This document shows, in pieces, positions 3,981 to 53,870 of a stretch of 53,978 bases of DNA (positions are counted from its first letter, which is position 1; the number at the start of each line of letters is the position of its first letter). This stretch comes from Ktedonobacterales bacterium (GTDB lineage: Bacteria; Chloroflexota; Ktedonobacteria; Ktedonobacterales; Ktedonobacteraceae). Location: positions 1 to 53,978 of the forward strand of contig JBBPYR010000187.1 of NCBI GenBank assembly GCA_038199755.1, read 5' to 3'. The translations under genes and the position numbers were made by a program. The notes under the pieces were generated by a model, which was not told where the DNA came from, did no database searches, and worked only from the letters and a program-made list of their open reading frames with translations.

Positions 3981-4104
3981 AAACCTGGAAAGGGAGAAAT
4001 TCAGGCTAGCTTCCCAAAGGGATCACCGCTGGATTTACCGGAATCAGTGGGGAAAATGACAACCAACACGCGGAAGAGACCTTCCACGTGGAAAGAAAGC
4101 AACT

Positions 4105-4512
4105 ATGTTTCTCGGCGAATACGAGCATACAATCGACACAAAAGGGCGCATGGCGGTTCCAGCACGGTTTCGTGCACAACTGGACCATGGTGCCGTCATA
4201 AGCAAAGGCATGGGGGCCTGTTTGTCGATATATACGCTCGCACGTTGGGAAGAAAAATCGAATGAACTGGTAGCAAGCAAGACAAGCGAAGAGTTGCGCG
4301 ACTTTGAACGCCGCATCTTTCCCAGTGCCGGTGAAATCGAGCTAGATCATCAGGGACGCATCGTGATACCCGTTAAGCTCCGCCAATATGCGAGCTTAGA
4401 GGGAGAAGTCACCATTGCCGGTGTACGCGACCATTTCGAGATTTGGGACCGTGCCGCCTGGCAAGCGTACCAGGAAAGACTTGACGCCGAGGGGAATAAC
4501 ATCCCCTTCTAA
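4105..4512 (+). CDS. mraZ: Transcriptional regulator MraZ
   Basis: 135 aa with the duplicated MraZ fold motifs (GEYEHTIDTKGRMAVPARFR...QGRIVIPVKLRQYA). It is the first gene of the dcw cluster. Confidence 0.95.
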   Translation: MFLGEYEHTIDTKGRMAVPARFRAQLDHGAVISKGMGACLSIYTLARWEEKSNELVASKTSEELRDFERRIFPSAGEIELDHQGRIVIPVKLRQYASLEGEVTIAGVRDHFEIWDRAAWQAYQERLDAEGNNIPF

Positions 4513-4515
4513 GTT

Positions 4516-5625
4516 ATGAACATTAAAGAACCTGAAACAATGCAGACACAACATGTGCCAGTTATGCTGGAAGAGGTGCTTGCCTACCTCCAGCCCCGCC
4601 CTGGTGGTTATTATATCGATGGCACACTAGGCGGTGGTGGACATACAGCAGCCATTCTTGAGCGTTCCGCTCCCGATGGCAAAGTACTCGGCATTGATGC
4701 CGATGAGCAAGCACTTGAGCGTGTCCATGCTCGCCTCTCACACTACGTTGAAAGCGGGCGGCTCATGCTAGCGCACGGCAATTTCGCCGATATTACGCGC
4801 ATCGCCCATGAAACACGTTTCGTGTCTGCCCATACCAGCACCAGCACAGCGGAACACGCGGTGTACGCAGAGAAAGAACGAGACGCCGTACAAGGCATTT
4901 TGCTTGACCTCGGCTTCTCATCGGACCAGATGGACAATCCGCAACGCGGCTTCTCCTTCAGTGCCGATGGACCGCTTGATATGCGACTCGATCAATCGCT
5001 TCCCTACTCAGCCGCTGACCTAGTAAACAGTGCCAGTGAGCATGAGCTAGCGGATATCATCTGGCGCTACGGTGAAGAGACACGTTCACGGCAGATCGCA
5101 CGACGCATCGTGCGCGAGCGTGAGAAGGAAGCTATCACACATACAGCTCAATTGGCAAAACTGGCAGCGGCGGGGGTGCCCTTTAAAAGGGGGGCCATTC
5201 ATCCGGCTACCAAAACCTTTCAAGCCTTGCGTATCGCGGTAAACAAAGAGTTGGAGCAGTTGGAAACAGCACTCCCACAAATACGCGATCTCTTACAAAA
5301 GCATCCCGCAAGCACTCAAGGAGCACAAGGGAGCACCGCTGAAGAGGATGAAAGAGGGAAAGAAAAGCAGGAGAATGAGTCAAGCGAAGGCGGACGAATG
5401 GCAATCATCGCCTTTCACTCGCTTGAGGACCGCATCGTAAAAGAGTTTATGCGACACGAGGCAAAAGATTGCATTTGCCCACCGCATGTACCAATTTGCA
5501 TTTGCGGCCACAAAGCCAGCTTACGCATATTGACACACAAACCTGTGACACCAACGCCACAGGAAATCGCAAATAACCCGCGTGCCCGCAGTGCCAAACT
5601 ACGAGCCGCCATCACGATACCGTAG
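4516..5625 (+). CDS. rsmH: 16S rRNA (cytosine1402-N4)-methyltransferase RsmH, with an internal charged insertion
   Basis: VPVMLEEVL...[15 protein letters not shown]...[12 protein letters not shown]. The TAG stop at 5623-5625 lies inside the first REP-like repeat copy. Confidence 0.9.
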
Positions 5626-5750
5626 GGGCGAGATTTATCGCGCCCCCCGTCGCAAACAAACACCCGTAGGGGCGAGATTTATCGCGCCCCACACGTCACG
5701 ACACGACGGATCGTCACAACACCGTAGGGGTGAGATTTATCGCACACCCT
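5621..5750. repeat. Tandem array of three copies of REP-like hairpin repeat family 1 (CCGTAGGGGCGAGATTTATCGCGCCCC)
   Basis: Copies are at about 5621, 5665 and 5723. Each unit is an imperfect hairpin, GGGGCG(A/C)G...CGCGCCCC. Confidence 0.85.
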
Positions 5751-5767
5751 ACCGTAAGGAAAGAACT

Positions 5768-6178
5768 ATGTACAGCCTGAAAGAACGTGCCAGTGCTCCA
5801 CAGGCAGCCGTATCGCAGCCTATCTTGGCTGCCAAACGCCGCCGACAGTTGCACCCATTTCTTTTTCACATGGGTCCTGTTGCGCTCTGCGTGACAAGTG
5901 TGCTGCTCATCGCACTGATGGCACTGCTCTATCTCAGTCAGGTTGGACAGGCCGTTTCCGCGAACCAGCAACTACAGGACCTGCACTATCAGCAAAGCAA
6001 ACTGCAACAGCAAAACCAGGACCTAGCATTAGTAATCTCGCAAGAACAATTACCGGAATACATCGCGGCCCAGGCCGCCAAGATGGGACTCGTATTAGCA
6101 GACCCATCCAAAGTACAAAACGTCGTTGTCCATAATTTGCAACCCATTCACAAATTTAGCACACCCATTCAACCGTAA
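5768..6178 (+). CDS. ftsL: FtsL/DivIC-like cell division protein
   Basis: The start is set at ATG 5768 with an upstream aagga. It has one TM helix (PVALCVTSVLLIALMALLYL) and then a coiled-coil Q/L-rich segment, in the canonical position between rsmH and ftsI. Confidence 0.55.
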   Translation: MYSLKERASAPQAAVSQPILAAKRRRQLHPFLFHMGPVALCVTSVLLIALMALLYLSQVGQAVSANQQLQDLHYQQSKLQQQNQDLALVISQEQLPEYIAAQAAKMGLVLADPSKVQNVVVHNLQPIHKFSTPIQP

Positions 6179-6180
6179 CC

Positions 6181-6303
6181 GTCACGACACCGTAGGGGCG
6201 AGATTTATCGCGCCCCCGTCGCAACACAACACCGTAGGGGCGAGATTTATCGCGCCCCACCGTCGCAACACAACACCGTAGGGGCGAGATTTATCGCGCC
6301 CCA
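6181..6303. repeat. Second tandem array of three copies of REP family 1, each followed by a 15-18-bp gtcgcaacacaacac linker
   Basis: Copies are at 6191-6217, 6233-6259 and 6277-6303. Confidence 0.85.
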
Positions 6304-6337
6304 CCCGTCGCAATACAACAGGACAAGGAGACCATCA

Positions 6338-8182
6338 ATGAACATTGAACTACAGCGCGCACGCAAACGCCAGATGTTCATTTTCTTGCTGGTCTGTTTT
6401 GGCATGATCGCCCTCCTTGGCCGCGCCTACTATTGGCAAGTCATCAATCCTGTCGTGCTCGATGGTTACACTACAAAGCAGTTGGCAAATTTTGAGCACG
6501 TCAAAAATCGTGTGCTCGACGCGCCACGCGGCCTCATCTACGACATGAATGGCCAACTGTTGGCAAGCAACGTTGTACGCGACGATGTCTACATCGAGCC
6601 CATCCAGTTCTGGAGCGACCACACCGACAGCACACAGACGATGACCGACCTGTCAGTGCTGATCAACAAACTGCATCAAATTCTGAATATAGCAGAAGAC
6701 AAACTGTATAAGGCGTTTAATTTAGGGCAAGGCAAATATCCGCTGGCAACCTACATGATCGCGCCAAGCATCAATCCGGCGACGAGCCAGCAATTACGCG
6801 CCTCGCACCTGTCGTACGTCTTTTTAGAGCCGCACCCAGTGCGCGTCTATCCCGGCGGCGATCTCGCAGCCCAAATACTGGGTTATGTAGGACCAGATCC
6901 AGACCCGAACGCCGCGACCCAGTATACTGGCTTTTATGGTATTGAGGGGCAATACAATAGCCTGCTTTCAGGCAAGCCCGGCACATTCACAGCAGAGACA
7001 GACCTGAACGGCAACCCGCTCACCGTGGGAGCAAGCTCCGGTCAACAGGCCGTCAATGGAGCAAATATCACGCTCACCATCGACAGCGTTGTCCAATACT
7101 ATGCACAGCAGATACTGGCCGAACAGGTCAAGAAAACACAGGCACAAAGCGGCACCGCCATCGTCATGAATGCGCGCACAGGTGCGATCATCGCTATGGC
7201 GAACGCGCCAACCTTTGACCCCAATAACTTTGGGAAGAGTGTTTCTGTCAAAGGCTGCGAAAACCAGCTCAGCGTGTACCTTAACTCAGCCCTGTATTGT
7301 GCCTACGAGCCAGGCTCGACCATGAAATCGGTGACGATGGCCGCCGGTCTCGATCAAGGCGTCATCACACCAAACACGACAGTTAATGACCCAGGCATCT
7401 ACTATTTTAATGATGCACAGGCGGTCACAAACTGGAACGACTTAGGCTATGGTCTCGAAACCATGACTGGCGTGCTAGAGCATTCCGCCAACGTGGGGGC
7501 TGCATTCGTGGCACACGACAAATTGGGAGCTAGCCGCTTCTACCCTTACCTGCAACAATTCGGCTTTGGCCAGCGCACCGGCCTGGCCCTACCGAATCTG
7601 GAATCCCCAGGTACCTATCGTTCGCCTCAGAACGCGCCCGCGAACTCATTGGTACCCTGGACACCTAGTGATCTGACACGGCAAGCCTTTGGCCAAAGTA
7701 TCCTGGTGACGCCTATGCAAATGGTGCAGGCATACCAAACCATCGCCAACGGTGGTGTTATGATGCGCCCCTATCTGGTGGCATCCATCAATGACAACGA
7801 CCATGTCACTACAACACAGACGCAGGTGAAGCGCCGCGTCATCAGCGCACAAGCGGCCCAACAGCTCATTAGCATGCTCAATGCAGCCGCTGACTATAAC
7901 AAACAGGCAACCTTCCCTGGCTATAGCGTCGCCGTCAAAACCGGCACCGCGACCACCCAGGGTATATCAGCAGATCAAACCGTGGCTTCGATGGCTGGCT
8001 TCTTACCAGCATCCAATCCACAATATGTCATTTTAGTAAAAATAGACCGCCCACAGGCCACCATCTTTGGTGGCACCGCAGCGGCACCTGTATGGAAATT
8101 ACTCGCGCAAGAATTAATGTGGCATTATAGTGTTCCACCCGACCTGCCTATCAATCCGACAGGGAGCAGTGGACAACCATAA
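6338..8182 (+). CDS. ftsI: Peptidoglycan D,D-transpeptidase FtsI (class B penicillin-binding protein)
   Basis: N-terminal TM helix, PBP dimerisation domain, and the transpeptidase motifs STMK (EPGSTMKSV), SAN (EHSANVG) and KTGT (AVKTGTA). Confidence 0.9.
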   Translation: MNIELQRARKRQMFIFLLVCFGMIALLGRAYYWQVINPVVLDGYTTKQLANFEHVKNRVLDAPRGLIYDMNGQLLASNVVRDDVYIEPIQFWSDHTDSTQTMTDLSVLINKLHQILNIAEDKLYKAFNLGQGKYPLATYMIAPSINPATSQQLRASHLSYVFLEPHPVRVYPGGDLAAQILGYVGPDPDPNAATQYTGFYGIEGQYNSLLSGKPGTFTAETDLNGNPLTVGASSGQQAVNGANITLTIDSVVQYYAQQILAEQVKKTQAQSGTAIVMNARTGAIIAMANAPTFDPNNFGKSVSVKGCENQLSVYLNSALYCAYEPGSTMKSVTMAAGLDQGVITPNTTVNDPGIYYFNDAQAVTNWNDLGYGLETMTGVLEHSANVGAAFVAHDKLGASRFYPYLQQFGFGQRTGLALPNLESPGTYRSPQNAPANSLVPWTPSDLTRQAFGQSILVTPMQMVQAYQTIANGGVMMRPYLVASINDNDHVTTTQTQVKRRVISAQAAQQLISMLNAAADYNKQATFPGYSVAVKTGTATTQGISADQTVASMAGFLPASNPQYVILVKIDRPQATIFGGTAAAPVWKLLAQELMWHYSVPPDLPINPTGSSGQP

Positions 8183-8199
8183 CAAGTTGTAGGGAAATA

Positions 8200-8520
8200 A
8201 TGCAATCAGAAAAAAAACAATCGTCTTCCAACAATATGGAACTCAGCAATATATGGCAAGAATTATTAGGAGAGCAATCACTTGACGCGGAAAATTCACC
8301 TACTGCAAGTGAGAGCACAAGTGTCGAGGAAGTCGAGCAAATGCAAGAGGCCACGACACCAACAGAAGCGATTCCAACCTTACCCAGCGATCCCTGGAGT
8401 GAACTAGTACTAGCCAGAGGTACCGAAATGATAGACCTGAGCCAGCTCCAATTACATATGAGCGATCAGGATGTAGAGCAAATCTTGCAACTAATGCAAG
8501 AAGACCAACCCAACCCGTAG
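8200..8520 (+). CDS. Hypothetical small acidic protein with lower-GC, atypical codon usage
   Basis: 106 aa, rich in E/D/Q/S, with no TM helix. The TAG stop is supplied by a degenerate REP copy (ccgTAGggacgag). It occupies the slot where murE-murD normally sit. Confidence 0.3.
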   Translation: MQSEKKQSSSNNMELSNIWQELLGEQSLDAENSPTASESTSVEEVEQMQEATTPTEAIPTLPSDPWSELVLARGTEMIDLSQLQLHMSDQDVEQILQLMQEDQPNP

Positions 8521-8846
8521 GGACGAGATACCTCCTTGCCGACTGCCTGAGCGAAGCTAGGACGATAGTCCGTTGACAGAATGAGTAAGGAGTTCGTTGG
8601 CAGTTGGAATAGAGAGTTTATCGCGCGCCCCGTCTCGACACGACGAGGCCATCACAACACCGTAGGGGCCAGATTTATCGCACCCCTTGTCAACCAGTAG
8701 GGATGTCCCTCGTGGGCATCCAATGCCAACCAATAATCTGCCTCTTGTGGGCACTCAATACCCACAAAGGTATACACATAATTTATATCTGTTCTCTGTA
8801 GTGAGTATACTAGAATAAATGTTCTATGTCAAGGGCTAAATAATTT

Positions 8847-10505
8847 ATGGCACGTGATTGGTCAAAAAGAACACAAAAAGCGAATGAAGAATCGGCAAAA
8901 AGCGAACGCGCCAAAGCAAGAGCGCGTCAAGAGCAGGTGCCACCAATAGTACGCTCTCCCGCATTGGAGTCAGCGGAAAAAGAGCGTGCTCAGGACCAGG
9001 CGAAGAAGGGCACAGCTCGTGCCAATTTGCGCCCACATCGTGATGCCAACTCTGTGCGCTACGCAGCAGAGGAAACGCTTGTCCGACCATCATTACCGCG
9101 TAAAAGCCTACCACGCCAGAAAAACATTCTTGGCCGCGCCGGTGCTCTTGACATACCTTCTGTGCGCCAGAACATACAGCCGCGCTCCGGCATCACCGCA
9201 GCTTGGCGTCTACGTACGCCAGAGGCTGCCTCGGCACCCAAGCAAGAGGCTGAATATCCCAGCATTAGCGAGGAAGAGAAGAAAAAACTTGCCGAGCTAG
9301 AAATGCGCTTACCGCGTGTAGCTGGCAAAATTGATGCATGGTTACTCATTGTGGTCATAGCCCTGATCTGCCTTGGACTCATCATGGTCTTTAGTTCCAG
9401 CTCTTTTATCGCCGCCCAGTACTATGGTGATGCATCCTACTTCTTCCAGAAGCAGTTACTGTGGGTCATCATCGGCATTCCGGTGATGCTCGTCACCATG
9501 CGTATAGATTATCGTCTGTGGCGGCGTTTCTCGCTGGTTGGCCTGATTATCGTTGTGCCAATGCTGGTCCTTGTGCTCAAGTTTGGTACAACCACCTATG
9601 GAGCCTCGCGCTGGTTCAAACTAGGCTTTGCCTCTTTTCAACCAAGCGAATTTGCCAAACTCGTGTTGGCCTTATACATCGCAGATTGGTTGGCTCGCAA
9701 AGGCAAACAGGTCAGCACCTTCCTTTACGGACTGGCTCCATTTATTATCCTTCTTGGTGTCATTCTCGGATTGGTGTTGCTGGAAAACGACATGGGAACC
9801 GCCATCATCATCGCGGGTCTCGCGGCAGCCATGTTCTTTACAGCAGGCGCAAATATCATACAGTTTCTGCTCGCGATGGCTGGCGGTGGCGTGGTCTTTT
9901 TCCTGCAGGCCATCTTCAAAGCTTATCGCTATGCACGTTTGATTGGCTTTCTCAATCCCTTCAAGGGCATTTATGATCTTAACTTACAACTCTATCAATC
10001 ATTATTAGCACTGGGGTCCGGTGGCTTGTTCGGCGTTGGTCTGGGTGCCAGCCGCCAGAAGACAGGCTACTTGCCATTTCCTTATAGCGACTCGATCTTC
10101 GCCATTCTCGGTGAAGAACTCGGTTTTATTGGTTCTGCTCTTATCATTGCGCTTTTCCTTTTCCTGGCGTTCCGGGGCTTCCGCCTCGCACGCCGCACGC
10201 CGGACATCTACGGCGCACTACTGGCAACAGGCATCACAACATGGTTGGTGTTACAGGCATTGATTAACATCGGTGCCTCGACCGGCTCCATCCCATATAC
10301 GGGTGTTCCGCTACCGTTTATCAGTTTCGGTGGTTCATCGCTGGTCATCTCTATGGGTGCCATCGGTGTACTACTCAATATCTCTCGTTATATTCAGGAG
10401 CCAGAAGTTCCCGCGCTCTCTCGTCGCACCATTGCCATTGGCAAGAATACTATCGCAAAGAAGACGAAAAAGCGCTCGGCTACGGCTTCGGCAACCAACT
10501 CGTAG
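8847..10505 (+). CDS. ftsW: Peptidoglycan glycosyltransferase FtsW (SEDS family), with a roughly 150-aa basic N-terminal extension
   Basis: The SEDS core starts near the MRLPRVAGKIDAWLLIVV motif and has a multi-TM FtsW/RodA pattern (GASRWFKLGFASFQPSEFAKL...). The true start could be the internal ATG at 9303. Confidence 0.8.
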   Translation: MARDWSKRTQKANEESAKSERAKARARQEQVPPIVRSPALESAEKERAQDQAKKGTARANLRPHRDANSVRYAAEETLVRPSLPRKSLPRQKNILGRAGALDIPSVRQNIQPRSGITAAWRLRTPEAASAPKQEAEYPSISEEEKKKLAELEMRLPRVAGKIDAWLLIVVIALICLGLIMVFSSSSFIAAQYYGDASYFFQKQLLWVIIGIPVMLVTMRIDYRLWRRFSLVGLIIVVPMLVLVLKFGTTTYGASRWFKLGFASFQPSEFAKLVLALYIADWLARKGKQVSTFLYGLAPFIILLGVILGLVLLENDMGTAIIIAGLAAAMFFTAGANIIQFLLAMAGGGVVFFLQAIFKAYRYARLIGFLNPFKGIYDLNLQLYQSLLALGSGGLFGVGLGASRQKTGYLPFPYSDSIFAILGEELGFIGSALIIALFLFLAFRGFRLARRTPDIYGALLATGITTWLVLQALINIGASTGSIPYTGVPLPFISFGGSSLVISMGAIGVLLNISRYIQEPEVPALSRRTIAIGKNTIAKKTKKRSATASATNS

Positions 10506-27482: not shown

Positions 27483-28574
27483 TTGAATAACCCTATGCAA
27501 GATAGCATGTTAGAAGCGGCCCGTCTCACACGCGACGGAAAACTCAAGGAGGCAACTGCACTTATTCAGCGTACACTTGCTGCTCACTCTTCGCCCGTCA
27601 GCACTACCAACACCGCCAACATGCCAGCAATAACACCGAGCAAGGCCAATCAGCCAATTGAAGCCGAGTTTCGTGTGCTGGATGATTCCCCTGCACCTCA
27701 TAAGAGCAAGCAAGGGCAATTCATTGAGAAGAGCTACAGCAATCCAGCTGGCACACGTCCCTACAAACTCTATATTCCCAGCGGCTATACAGGACAGGCG
27801 GTTCCTCTCGTAGTCATGCTGCACGGCTGCTCACAGAACGCCACCAATTTTTCCATCGGCACACGCATGAATACGCTTGCCGAAGAAGCAACCTTTCTCG
27901 TTGCCTATCCAGAACAAGGCAGTGCGGCGAACAGCACAAAATGCTGGAATTGGTATCAAAAGGCAAACCAGCAGCGCGACAAAGGCGAACCATCACTCAT
28001 CGCAGGCATCACAGAACAGGTCATGCGCGACTATCAGATTGATACGCGCCGCATCTATATCGCAGGGCTATCTTCGGGCGGGGCTATGGCGGCTATCATG
28101 GCCGCCACCTATCCCCATCTCTATGCCGCCGTCTGCGTCCATTCCGGCCTTGCTTATAGTGCCGCGCACGACCTCCCTTCCGCCTTCGCTGCGATGAACC
28201 AAGGGGCAAGCCAACCTGCGAAACAACTGACAAAGGCGATCCCGCTGATCATCTTCCACGGAGACCGTGACACAACCGTAGCCCCTAGCAACGCAGACAC
28301 GCTCCTCAACCAGTGGCTCCAGGCCACGTCTCGCACGCAAGGAGCGGCACTAGCCGCTACGGTAGAACGCGCACACGCAAAGAATGGGTATGCCTACACA
28401 CGCTCTCTCTACCGCAATCGCCGAGAACAAGTGCTTATTGAGCAATGGCTCGTCCATCAAGCAGGCCATGCCTGGTTTGGCGGAAATCCCCAAGGCTCTT
28501 ATACCGACATGCGTGGACCCGATGCCTCCAGCGAAATGCTGCGCTTCTTCAATCAGCATCCCAAAGAGCAATAA
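27483..28574 (+). CDS. PHB-depolymerase-family esterase (Esterase_phd)
   Basis: LVVMLHGCSQNATNF...AYPEQ...CWNWY...IYIAGLSSGGAMAAIMAATYP...VHSG matches the extracellular PHB depolymerase / feruloyl-esterase-like family pattern. Confidence 0.75.
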   Translation: MNNPMQDSMLEAARLTRDGKLKEATALIQRTLAAHSSPVSTTNTANMPAITPSKANQPIEAEFRVLDDSPAPHKSKQGQFIEKSYSNPAGTRPYKLYIPSGYTGQAVPLVVMLHGCSQNATNFSIGTRMNTLAEEATFLVAYPEQGSAANSTKCWNWYQKANQQRDKGEPSLIAGITEQVMRDYQIDTRRIYIAGLSSGGAMAAIMAATYPHLYAAVCVHSGLAYSAAHDLPSAFAAMNQGASQPAKQLTKAIPLIIFHGDRDTTVAPSNADTLLNQWLQATSRTQGAALAATVERAHAKNGYAYTRSLYRNRREQVLIEQWLVHQAGHAWFGGNPQGSYTDMRGPDASSEMLRFFNQHPKEQ

Positions 28575-28629
28575 CTACAGCAAAAAAGGCCACTCTCGTC
28601 GAGAGTGGCCTTTTTTGCTGTAGTTATTG
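28568..28629. terminator. Long (about 30-bp arms) palindromic bidirectional terminator with A6/T6 tracts
   Basis: caataactacagcaaaaaaggccactctcg-tc-gagagtggccttttttgctgtagttattg lies between convergent genes. Confidence 0.7.
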
Positions 28630-28631
28630 CT

Positions 28632-29429
28632 CTAAATCTTGTTGCGCGTCCTGCCCAGGTTCCCTGGAATATCCTCGTTCAGGCCAATGTGGTTTACCAC
28701 CACACGTACGCCCGGAATACCAATCAGTTCGCGTTCCAGCATCAACTTCATATCCTCTGTGGGAACATCACCGTATAGTTGCAGAATGTAATTCTCAACC
28801 AGCACCGTAATATTGTGCGACCCATCCAGCTTGCCCTTTTCCTGCAAACTCGTGATCCGAGCATTCGCCAAGTTCAAAATAGCATCCTCGGCGACGACAA
28901 AATTTTTCACATTGGCAACGTTGGGCAACTGCCACAACGCATCCTCAAGCTCATCACGCTGTGCCTCAAGCTCCACCTTGCCATAGACCGCCAGAGCCAC
29001 CGTATCGCCCTGCACATCCTCAAGCTCCACACGCACGGGATGCGTGCTGTAGGCCGTGCTGCTGACCGTTACCACGCGCTCAACCATCTCCTGAGCCAGT
29101 TCCAGCACCTGCTCTGGTGTCAAATCGGGCTGATAATTCTCAACCCCCTCTTTAGCTTGCTCGCCCGCCATGGGATCCTCTAATGCCCAACCCATAATGC
29201 CAATCAGCACAAAGGGTGTCGCAATAATCGTCAACCAGGGATTTTTTGGAATAAAGAGCAAACCCGTAATCGCAGCAATGACCGCTAAGCTCAAGATCAA
29301 TGGCCAGTAGCTGGGACCGGGCAAATGTATATGATGCCCTGCCTCATCCCCGTGTGCATCTGCATGAACGTCGAGTGACGAGTGTACTTCGCCCTCTGTC
29401 AGATTAGCACTTTGAAGAGACGTATCCAT
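28632..29429 (-). CDS. Membrane protein with tandem C-terminal BON domains
   Basis: An N-terminal His-rich segment, two TM helices (WPLILSLAVIAAITGLLF, IIATPFVLIGIMGWAL), then two BON-like repeats (VVAEDAILNLANARIT..., VENYILQLYGDVPTEDMKLMLERELIGIPGVRVVVNHI). Confidence 0.55.
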   Translation of the reverse strand: MDTSLQSANLTEGEVHSSLDVHADAHGDEAGHHIHLPGPSYWPLILSLAVIAAITGLLFIPKNPWLTIIATPFVLIGIMGWALEDPMAGEQAKEGVENYQPDLTPEQVLELAQEMVERVVTVSSTAYSTHPVRVELEDVQGDTVALAVYGKVELEAQRDELEDALWQLPNVANVKNFVVAEDAILNLANARITSLQEKGKLDGSHNITVLVENYILQLYGDVPTEDMKLMLERELIGIPGVRVVVNHIGLNEDIPGNLGRTRNKI

Positions 29430-30783: not shown

Positions 30784-30820
30784 AAATGTGATATATCTAT
30801 GGGTAAAGAGTCATTGTAAA

Positions 30821-30888
30821 GGGCACCCGTAAAGGGATGCCCACAAGCGAAGCGGTATCATGGTAGAGGCATCCCTTTACGGGTACCT
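30821..30888. repeat. Inverted pair of REP-like repeat family 2 (GGGCACCCGTAAAGGGATGCCC / GGCATCCCTTTACGGGTACC)
   Basis: Copies at 30821-30842 and 30869-30888 in opposite orientation. Related copies lie at 40626-40647 and 53701-53722. Confidence 0.7.
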
Positions 30889-30924: not shown

Positions 30925-31746
30925 ATGCAGACATATCGTTATGTTGACACAGGCACACAGGATGCAGCCTTAAACATGGCCATTGACGAGGCCATACTCA
31001 CTCATTATCTCAATGGCGAGGTACCACCCACCCTGCGCGTCTTCCGCTGGACACAGCCTGCTATCTCGCTTGGACGCTTCCAAAACGTCGAACGCGAAAT
31101 CGACGGCGAGGCATGCCAGCGGCAGGACATAGCATTAGTGCGTCGTCCCACTGGTGGACGGGCCGTCTATCACCGCGATGAGTTCACCTATAGCATCATC
31201 ATTGGCAAGCGTGAAGGTGTTCCTTCTGGTGTCGTCGCAGCCTACGCCTATCTCGCGCACGGCCTCATTGCCGCCCTCAACGCCTTGGGCGTACATGCCA
31301 TCTTGAGCGATGAGCACGTCAGCAAACATCCATCCGCCGCCTGCTTCGCATCCTCCACCCAGGCCGACCTCACCAGCAACGGCTACAAGCTCGTGGGCAG
31401 CGCACAGGTCTGGAAAGATGAAGGCTTGTTACAACAAGGCTCCCTGCCACTCGATGACTGCTCCGCCGAATTCTTCGCGCTGCTATGCTACCCTAGCGAA
31501 GCAGACCGTCAGGAAGCCCTAGCATCCTATCGCGAAAAAACCACGCCGCTACACAGCTTCGTCCCCGACACGCCATGGGACGACGTAGCCACCGCCTTCA
31601 AAAGCGGCTTTAGCGCAGCCCTGCAAACCTCATTCGAGACGGACACCCTCTCACCAAAAGAATGGGACCTTGCCCACCAGCTCGTCGCAGAAAAATATAG
31701 CAAACTGACATGGCGCAAAGACCGCGTCACATTGGTACAAGGATAG
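30925..31746 (+). CDS. Lipoate--protein ligase / octanoyltransferase family protein (BPL_LplA_LipB domain)
   Basis: AALNMAIDEAIL...LRVFRWTQPAISLGRFQ...VRRPTGGRAVYH is the LplA/LipM catalytic core. The TAG stop abuts a REP family-1 copy. Confidence 0.78.
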   Translation: MQTYRYVDTGTQDAALNMAIDEAILTHYLNGEVPPTLRVFRWTQPAISLGRFQNVEREIDGEACQRQDIALVRRPTGGRAVYHRDEFTYSIIIGKREGVPSGVVAAYAYLAHGLIAALNALGVHAILSDEHVSKHPSAACFASSTQADLTSNGYKLVGSAQVWKDEGLLQQGSLPLDDCSAEFFALLCYPSEADRQEALASYREKTTPLHSFVPDTPWDDVATAFKSGFSAALQTSFETDTLSPKEWDLAHQLVAEKYSKLTWRKDRVTLVQG

Positions 31747-31770
31747 GTAGGGGCGAGATTCATCGCACCC
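31747..31770. repeat. Single REP family-1 copy (GTAGGGGCGAGATTCATCGCACCC) between the lplA-like stop and the next gene's RBS
   Basis: It runs directly into the aggagg RBS of the CDS starting at 31783. Confidence 0.7.
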
Positions 31771-31782
31771 AGGAGGTACATC

Positions 31783-34542: not shown

Positions 34543-34572
34543 GTAGGGGCGCGATGTATCGCGCCCCTACAG
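34543..34572. repeat. Perfectly palindromic variant of REP family 1 (GTAGGGGCGCGATGTATCGCGCCCCTAC)
   Basis: A 30-bp element in an intergenic region on the - strand operon side. Confidence 0.75.
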
Positions 34573-40605: not shown

Positions 40606-40718
40606 GCAGGACATTTGTTTTGACAGGGTACCCGCAAGGGGATGCCCTGTCTCACCTTGCAATCTCCATATGGAGATTTTGTCTATGCCCTTCTCCCTTT
40701 TACAGCAAATTCATACTC

Positions 40719-48107: not shown

Positions 48108-48371
48108 GCAGCAGCGAAGCGCGCTGCAGGCCCCCGTAGGGGCGGCATTTATGACTCCTTACAGCATGCCTGAGTGCGATAGCACTAGCGCGACAGCGCG
48201 TTGGCATGCTGAATAAGATGTGACGCCCTCGTACCCGTTCTGTTTGTGTTATTACCAGGATAATTCGTTAATCATGGAAGCCGCTGTAGGGGCCAGATTG
48301 ATCGCCTGTGAACGGGTACGGGGGCGTCATAAATGCCAGCCCCTACGGCCTGCAGCGCGCTTCGCTGCTGC
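48108..48371. mobile_element. Foldback/MITE-like element of about 264 bp with 46-bp imperfect terminal inverted repeats and a nested inner inverted repeat
   Basis: Left arm gcagcagcgaagcgcgctgcaggcccccgtaggggcggcatttatgac (48108-48155). Right arm gtcataaatgccagcccctacggcctgcagcgcgcttcgctgctgc (48326-48371). Inner inverted repeat gacgccctcgtacccgttc (48222-48240) / gaacgggtacgggggcgtc (48310-48328). It embeds REP family-1-like cores. Confidence 0.55.
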
Positions 48372-49390: not shown

Positions 49391-49573
49391 TCTTCCTTGC
49401 ATTCTGTCTGAGCGATAGCGCACTCCTCTCCGTCTGAAACGGAGCTCTCGCTCCTACGCTGCGCGTCATCAGACGGAGAGGAGTGCGCTTCGCTCAGCCC
49501 ATCGGAAAGGTAGCTACGCTTCGCGTCATCAGACAGAGAAGAGGTAGCTTCGCTCAGGCAGGATGCAAGGAAG
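49391..49573. repeat. Structured non-coding repeat region with a 30-bp inverted repeat, duplicated 44-bp units and an enclosing CTTCCTTGC/GCAAGGAAG inverted repeat
   Basis: Inverted repeat ctgagcgatagcgcactcctctccgtctga (49408-49437) / tcagacggagaggagtgcgcttcgctcag (49469-49497). Direct units ctacgct(g/t)cgcgtcatcagac.gaga.gag.t.gcttcgctcag at 49454-49497 and 49515-49558. Confidence 0.5.
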
Positions 49574-49681
49574 CTACGCTCGCCATGCAAAAAGTGACGC
49601 ACATACATGTAAAAAATGACGCATATCCAAACAAAACAGGGTCCAGAGCAAAACCGGAGCTTTTCAGATATGCCAGTTTGC

Positions 49682-53562: not shown

Positions 53563-53870
53563 CTCCGTTTCCGTAGGGGCGGGGGAGGACGTGGACGAGG
53601 GGATGGGACCCTCTGGGTCGCCCGTGGGGTGGGGCAAACGCATCTGCCACCAACGTTTTACCCATTGCAAAGGCAATGACAATACCCGACAAATAACGCA
53701 GGGCATCCCTTTACGGGTGCCCTTGCCACCAACGATTCCCGTTTTATTTCGTCAATGTGCATTTATGACGCCCTTGCCCGCCCACGGATACGCATCGGGC
53801 AATGGTTTTGCTGTGGGCATGAGGGTACACATGTCAACGGGTACGTGGGCGTCATAAATGCTGTCTTTTA
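53563..53870. repeat. Cluster of degenerate repeat copies: a REP family-1 core, a REP family-2 copy, and a fragment matching the foldback element's right arm
   Basis: ccgtaggggcggggg (53566-), gggcatccctttacgggtgccc (53701-53722), and aacgggtacgtgggcgtcataaatgc (about 53838-53863, compare 48310-48338). Confidence 0.5.

Follow-up and report, generated by a model that had tools for sequence, protein, structure and literature searches.

What are the short hairpin repeats that bracket an ftsL-like gene inside the division and cell wall (dcw) gene cluster of a Ktedonobacterales bacterium, and do they serve that cluster or merely reside in it? The question is raised by positions 1 to 53,978 of contig JBBPYR010000187.1, which were analyzed as one stretch of 53,978 nt (hereafter the window). 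The evidence assembled below makes it very probable that the repeats are GTAG-tagged repetitive extragenic palindromic (REP) sequences, i.e., non-autonomous, non-coding elements that are spread by a REP-associated tyrosine transposase (RAYT) of subclass 2.4 (group 4) and that survive at the ends of genes.

Repeat arrays on both sides of ftsL

The exact 27-mer CCGTAGGGGCGAGATTTATCGCGCCCC was found at positions 5620, 5664, 6190, 6232 and 6276, and inexact matches were detected at 5722 (3 mismatches), 8660 (2 mismatches) and 34541 (3 mismatches), all of them on the + strand. These 8 matches compare with none in 100 dinucleotide-preserving shuffles of the window, and a 25-mer pattern search added a further copy at 31747. 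The search bears out the initial annotation, which had described two same-strand arrays of three copies each, one after rsmH and the other after ftsL.

The first array lies between rsmH and the ftsL/divIC-like gene (5768-6178, + strand), which is enclosed by both arrays. It is composed of two exact copies at 5620-5646 (CC, followed by the GTAG head and the hairpin) and 5664-5690, together with a degenerate third copy at 5722-5752 that carries 3 mismatches, has a double-foot-like form (GTAGGGGTG...CACACCCTAC) and ends 8 nt before the Shine-Dalgarno sequence of ftsL. The copies are irregularly spaced, at 44 and 58 nt. The second array consists of three exact copies at 6190-6216, 6232-6258 and 6276-6302; the GTAG head of its first copy is situated 13 nt past the ftsL TAA (6176-6178), and its last copy is 35 nt upstream of the start of the ftsI-type penicillin-binding protein gene. 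Tandem Repeats Finder delimited this array to 6183-6320, with a period of 44, 3.2 copies and 94% matches. All six array copies are on the + strand, head-to-tail. The repeated unit of the dcw cluster is larger than the hairpin, since a CA-rich leader of 12-14 nt (...CGTCACAACACC) precedes GTAG in 7 of 7 copies; the 42-44-nt period of the arrays is due to the inclusion of this leader in the unit.

Short palindromic direct repeats with a regular spacing of about 44 nt might also be taken for a degenerate or miniature locus of the CRISPR kind, or for some other locus that acquires spacers. However, the spacers between the array copies measure 15-31 nt and are near-identical, there are three units per array, and the repeat, with its REP-type GTAG head, is dispersed singly in the window and across many phyla. 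We therefore give this explanation virtually no credence.

Beyond the arrays, a split copy on the + strand occupies 8517-8631, its two halves, GTAGGGACGAGAT (8517-8529) and TTTATCGCGCGCCCC (8617-8631), being separated near the loop. Another + strand copy at 8660-8686 has 2 mismatches and the same 14-nt CA-rich leader as the dcw arrays. An isolated copy with 3 mismatches is found at 31747-31771 (+ strand), and a perfect double-foot REP, GTAGGGGCGCGATGTATCGCGCCCCTAC, which has no strand of its own, is located at 34543-34570 between two minus-strand genes. In total, the window contains 10 copies of the family, of which 10 are intergenic, placed past gene ends, and none occurs in any of the 7 divergent spacers. 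Among the additional copies listed in the initial annotation, those at about 8661, 31747 and 34543 (the palindromic one) belong to the family; the sequences at 48131-48350 represent a related but distinct sub-family, and the site at 53566 is not a copy, as it shares only the head GTAGGGGCG.

Structure of the repeat unit

The basic unit is 25 nt long and consists of GTAG followed by a hairpin with a 9-bp stem (GGGGCG-A-GAT / ATC-G-CGCCCC), in which a single A·G mismatch is present, and a 4-nt loop. The predicted folding energy of the main copy is -14.3 kcal/mol as RNA (z -3.7) and -8.8 as DNA. The double-foot copy (34543-34570), a perfect palindrome of 28 nt, shows GTAG on either strand and has an RNA energy of -28.2 kcal/mol; a partial double-foot is also apparent at 5724-5752. 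The G-C foot, GGGGCG/CGCCCC, is present in every copy.

Conservation of the structure was analyzed in an alignment of 20 variants taken from the window, from its relatives and from other phyla. The GTAG head was invariant in all 20 variants, as well as in all copies of the window, and compensatory changes were observed at 5 of the 9 stem pairs. Double-sided covariation was detected in 17 cells, versus 4.0 +/- 1.7 in shuffled alignments (0 of 500 shuffles reached 17), and the signal collapsed in slid controls. An Rfam scan of the whole window gave 0 matches at the gathering threshold.

The position of such G/C-rich stem-loops right after stop codons would also be expected of intrinsic (Rho-independent) terminators or attenuators dividing the dcw cluster into separate transcripts, and a T-run does follow the same hairpin in some other genomes (L003, L041, L063). 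In the window, however, a T/U tract is lacking after all copies, the post-hairpin sequence being rich in C and A, and a terminator scan of 4000-9000 gave no site on the + strand. Termination is thus a very improbable role for the repeats of this cluster.

Stop codons borne by the repeat

The rsmH gene (4516-5625, + strand; Pfam Methyltransf_5, E 1.6e-104) owes its last codons and its stop to the repeat. As had been proposed, its TAG at 5623-5625 is that of the first repeat copy and falls within the GTAG head at 5622-5625. The last codons of the gene, GCC ATC ACG ATA CCG TAG, align with the repeat leader, and the repeat therefore provides a tail of the protein in addition to the stop. In relatives that lack the repeat, RsmH ends in ...KLRAAE followed by 5-7 variable residues.

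A small open reading frame (ORF) at 8200-8520 (+ strand, 106 aa) ends on the TAG of the degenerate head GTAGGGACGAGAT at 8517, and the lplA-like ORF (30925-31746) stops on its own TAG, which abuts the copy at 31747; both had been noted previously. Donation of a stop codon by the repeat is hence observed in rsmH and in ORF 8200-8520.

Two further features of these genes were noted. The RsmH protein of this bacterium has 369 aa, compared with about 324-340 aa in most relatives; its Pfam domain match is divided into two parts, suggestive of low-complexity inserts specific to the lineage. ORF 8200-8520 has no Pfam match; it shows 44% identity to the syntenic ORF of Dictyobacter kobayashii, and the stop carried by the repeat shortens its C-terminus. 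This small ORF between ftsI and ftsW is a real, conserved gene.

Copy number in related dcw clusters

The RsmH of the window is closest to that of contigs at 94-78% identity, followed by Ktedonobacteraceae and Dictyobacter at about 69%. The two junctions, rsmH-ftsL and ftsL-ftsI, differ among these relatives. As opposed to the three copies at each junction of the window, the nearest relative (L118; RsmH 94%) has 1 copy at rsmH-ftsL, whose head TAG is again the rsmH stop, and its contig ends before ftsL-ftsI. In L116 (82%), rsmH-ftsL is devoid of copies, and 1 headless degenerate hairpin is present at ftsL-ftsI. In L115 (78%), 1 copy is found at rsmH-ftsL, where the rsmH stop is a TGA within a stem variant, and at least 2 copies at ftsL-ftsI, where the ftsL stop is the head TAG. 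Both junctions are free of copies in D. kobayashii (L117; 69%) and in a Ktedonobacteraceae contig (L119; 70%), in which the spacers at these junctions measure 28-96 bp. A short-read contig that encodes an identical RsmH breaks exactly at copy 1, which suggests a high copy number of the repeat.

Since the number of copies varies between relatives, the sites are old insertion points at which copy number is unstable. The arrays are not conserved in the dcw cluster of Ktedonobacteria, and their variation argues for unstable selfish DNA as opposed to a conserved regulator.

The same data bear on the possibility that the arrays are selected cis-regulatory RNA, in which stacked hairpins set the ratio of RsmH, FtsL and FtsI through ribosome stalling and protection from 3' exonucleases. 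The hairpin starts at the rsmH stop and about 16 nt past the ftsL stop, in Escherichia coli, REPs closer than 16 nt to a stop codon reduce translation (Liang et al. 2015, as cited in PMC12306157), and relatives with 78-94% RsmH identity have these two junctions occupied as well. However, the copies differ in number (1 versus 3 at rsmH-ftsL; 1, at least 2 or 3 at ftsL-ftsI), D. kobayashii and the other Ktedonobacteraceae contig manage without them, the repeat also follows unrelated genes, and no Rfam family is matched. Selection for such a function is considered unlikely.

An additional hairpin family was noted in the nearest relative: in L118 (1215-1330; the 94%-identical relative), a second GTAG-tagged family, GTAGGGATGTCCCTCGTGGGCATCC, is present in the rsmH-ftsL spacer along with two headless copies. 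In the window, this family is represented at 8697-8721, beside the main REP.

Gene-end bias and phylogenetic spread

When one genome per species was scanned with GTAGGGGCGNGATNTATCGCGCCCC, at least 112 loci were obtained. Going by record titles, the matches listed come from at least 14 phyla, among them Chloroflexota, Armatimonadota, Bacteroidota, Bacillota, Pseudomonadota, Acidobacteriota and Patescibacteria; metagenome-assembled genomes (MAGs) account for most of the loci and closed chromosomes for some, and the flanks of the loci are unrelated.

The expected preference for gene 3' ends and for overlap with stop codons is borne out in the listed matches. Among the 138 oriented heads of the 112 loci listed, the head TAG closes an open frame of 100 codons or more in 22, and no other offset from the head between -200 and -6 accounts for more than 4. 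Within the same listed set, the repeat occupies 29 convergent versus 9 divergent spacers, and the single-foot copies direct the head toward the upstream gene in 26 cases and the tail in 12.

Only 1 match was obtained in viral contigs, and phages are thus not obvious carriers of the repeat. A metagenome scan with the plain 25-mer recovered 5 contigs, none of them Ktedonobacteria-like, and in one the hairpin is inside a RAYT gene. In a gapped metagenome scan, the A-variant hairpin with DNA coding for WQRNYYE behind it gave 0 matches.

Reiteration of a different kind was seen in a Ktedonobacteraceae MAG (L080, 7640-8000), where the REP TAG ends a helix-turn-helix-type gene; half-hairpins (CCCATCGCGCCCC) in reiterated form and a tandem repeat of 33 nt come after the REP. 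A comparable reiteration of the 3' arm, encoding IAPL repeats, occurs within the RAYT ORF of L038.

Association with RAYT transposases

The enzyme family was identified through unbiased clustering of the neighbouring ORFs and through searches with E. coli RayT. Clustering over the 112 listed loci disclosed no recurrent neighbour besides the RAYT-like cluster. The hairpin is located within or beside a RAYT gene in 7 fetched loci (L002, L018, L031, L038, L059, L094 and L129). In L031, a fragment related to E. coli RayT lies 107 bp from the hairpin, and in the others the hairpin is in frame, right after the HuH motif MPNH[IV]HG. The RAYT-like ORFs score 24-57 bits with NCBIfam REP_Tyr_transpos, all below the 80-bit cut-off of that model, and 25.1 bits with Pfam Y1_Tnp (cut-off, 23).

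The embedded hairpin encodes the peptides VGARFIAPL, RGAIYRAPT and RGAINLAPT. A protein database search with the L094 protein returned 5,664 homologues, many of which are annotated as "REP element-mobilizing transposase RayT", and in nearly all of the best 120 of these 5,664 a hairpin-encoded linker is evident (RG[AT]IYRAPT, VGAxxxxAPT or RGAAMLRPY). In L121, the compensated variant GTAGGGGCACGATATATCGTGCCCCTAC is inside the RAYT gene, whose stop is the TAG of a second REP, and in L123 an identical REP is found both within the RAYT gene and 73 bp downstream. The exact A-variant of the window is carried inside the RAYT ORF of a metagenome contig (L129).

Several observations weigh against the assignment to a RAYT-mobilized family, or at least complicate it. 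No RAYT was detected in the 54-kb window or in the contigs of the relatives with E. coli RayT, IS200 TnpA and subclass-2.4-type queries; the searches matched the hairpin-encoded peptide only. RAYTs that carry an identical hairpin (L018, L038, L059, L094, L121, L123, L129) are just 27-57% identical to each other, and different hairpins occur in RAYTs with 62-70% identity. Judging from these sequences, the pairing of enzyme and repeat seems to be looser than a simple model would have it, and the identity of the hairpin appears decoupled from the phylogeny of the transposase. The linker between HuH and Y may be an insertion hot spot for whichever REP is active; alternatively, a fixed foot combined with about a thousand possible inner palindromes may have been re-sampled in many lineages. 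Moreover, head-to-tail dimers are rare among GTAG REPs (PMC3733652), and a recombinational origin of the arrays would not be separable from an enzymatic one.

Proposed origin and possible effects on the operon

Taken as GTAG-tagged REPs, the repeats would have originated as follows. A HuH/Y1 RAYT of the subclass 2.4 / group 4 type would act on the single-stranded hairpin. The unit of about 44 nt (leader, GTAG and hairpin) would have spread into three neighbouring intergenic spacers of the dcw cluster and would then have been reiterated head-to-tail. The arrays may have grown by slippage, by unequal recombination or by repeated enzymatic insertion beside an existing copy. Copies would persist where insertion is tolerated, namely just past the 3' ends of genes or slightly into them, and where a copy cuts into an ORF's end, the head TAG, or a stop in a stem variant, would become the new stop codon.

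A different account of the stop-codon overlap, in which GTAG served as a pre-existing insertion target (natural ...G|TAG stops), was rejected because experiments have shown the tetranucleotide to be a guide borne by the element, with cleavage at CT/CA beside the REP (Corneloup et al., PMC8266576); repeat-free relatives also lack GTAG at the end of rsmH.

The distance to the stop codon is less than 16 nt for the hairpins following rsmH and the lplA-like gene and is borderline for that following ftsL. By analogy, hairpins at 0-15 nt past a stop could stall terminating ribosomes, lower the output of RsmH and block 3' exonucleases. The roles suggested in the initial annotation (mRNA stability, differential expression of ftsL versus ftsI, and a recombination hotspot) are reasonable on the same grounds. 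Any such effects on the operon would be side-effects of selfish DNA, as distinct from a conserved control device. It is also conceivable, if quite unlikely in our estimation, that the arrays act as a copy-number rheostat, in which gain or loss of 44-nt units by slippage tunes the dose-sensitive divisome protein FtsL against RsmH and FtsI, from one closely related strain to another, through stalling at the rsmH and ftsL stop codons and exonuclease protection. Should the arrays indeed alter the output of RsmH or FtsL, this would represent natural tuning of a division gene by repeat number.

The identification of the repeats extends GTAG-tagged REPs to the Ktedonobacteria and offers a clean case in which repeats have rewritten the last codons and the stop of housekeeping genes inside an essential division operon. 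On the practical side, such repeats interrupt short-read assemblies and give rise to spurious ORFs and unusual C-termini of proteins; those who annotate Chloroflexota genomes should mask them.

Other genes and repeats of the window

The dcw cluster of the window includes mraZ (4105-4512; Pfam) ahead of rsmH. The ftsL-like gene scored 26.4 bits with Pfam, just below the cut-off, and its product is 56% identical to that of the syntenic Dictyobacter gene; its start, which had been placed at 5769, was corrected to 5768. The ftsI-type penicillin-binding protein gene (6338-8182, + strand) is downstream of the second array. Between 6338 and 11740 the order is ftsI, the small ORF, ftsW and murG, and murE, murF, mraY and murD are missing from their usual place. 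The gene order in D. kobayashii is the same (ftsI, small ORF, ftsW, murG). The genes further downstream comprise ftsW, murG, murC, murB, ftsQ and ftsA.

Additional repeats were evident in the window. The split REP copy at 8517-8631 is interrupted near its loop by an 87-nt insert (8530-8616) with GAGAT/GAGAG on its flanks, which shows 83-89% complementarity to the repeats of a tandem cluster at 49392-49573 (region 49392-49640); a second small mobile repeat seems to have inserted into the REP here. A 264-bp element without assigned strand (48108-48371) is situated between convergent genes and has perfect terminal inverted repeats of 25 nt. It encloses an inverted pair of REPs of the second sub-family (GTAGGGGC.GGCATTTATGAC.CC), with the GTAG heads at the outer ends, and half-sites related to it were found at 53756-53775 and 53834-53861.

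The palindrome GGGCACCCGTAAAGGGATGCCC is present in three copies (30819-30842, 40625-40649 and 53699-53724), the first two of which are located just past gene ends. Long perfect palindromes occur at 964-1039 (38 + 38 nt) and 28565-28633 (34 + 34 nt). The latter overlaps the ends of two convergent genes, contains A/T runs and may be a bidirectional terminator. GC skew is uniformly negative on the + strand and is uninformative as to the orientation of the REPs relative to replication.

Comparison with known REP systems

In the initial annotation, the repeats were termed "REP/BIME-like". The first part of the designation is appropriate, in view of the GTAG head, the hairpin and the association with RAYT elsewhere; the second fits poorly, as the bacterial interspersed mosaic elements (BIMEs) of E. 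coli have REPs in alternating orientation and the arrays of the dcw cluster are head-to-tail. In E. coli, BIMEs and intercistronic REPs, e.g., those of nrdAB (PMC12306157), resemble the present arrays in that REP clusters are placed between genes of one operon, and effects on mRNA decay, and on translation near the stop codon, are documented for E. coli REPs (PMC12306157). The BIMEs differ in their alternating orientation, and in their defined linker motifs and protein partners, neither of which is seen here, and the sequences are unrelated.

Similarly, the likeness to the REPINs (REP doublets forming hairpins) of Pseudomonas is partial. The 264-bp element at 48108-48371 is, like them, a pair of inverted REPs with the potential to fold into a long hairpin, but it bears an extra 25-nt terminal inverted repeat outside the heads, and the dcw arrays are direct repeats.

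The in-gene copies find their counterpart in TnpA-REP subclass 2.4, the equivalent of RAYT group 4 (Quentin et al. 2018, PMC6006769; Bertels et al. 2017). The REPs of this subclass are long, with three G-C foot pairs and double-foot forms, and the transposase gene itself contains in-frame REPs between HuH and Y; the distribution of the subclass is patchy and covers multiple phyla (PMC6006769). All of these features have a match here. The long stem, the foot of at least three G-C pairs and the double-foot GTAG...CTAC arrangement are shared by the repeats of the window. The in-gene REPs are matched in other genomes that carry the same hairpin; the cognate RAYT of the present host is a presumed one.

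A close correspondence is also seen with the GTAG REP super-family, which was defined, and reported in Chloroflexi, by Di Nocera et al. 2013 (PMC3733652). Both have a 5' GTAG, a G/C-rich stem (6-13 bp in the super-family) and a short loop, and both are found past coding regions. The GTAG termini often provide flanking ORFs with a TAG stop, as they do here, and clusters are reiterated in tandem together with flanking DNA (PMC3733652), in common with the leader-containing units of the dcw arrays. The GTAG-23 family of Thermomicrobium roseum, another member of the Chloroflexi (PMC3733652), is clustered too, but its stem sequence differs from that of the window repeat. A literature search retrieved no paper linking REPs with Ktedonobacteria. 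The properties that first drew attention to the repeats are all already known for GTAG REPs; the novelty lies in the host class and in the head-to-tail arrays within the dcw cluster.

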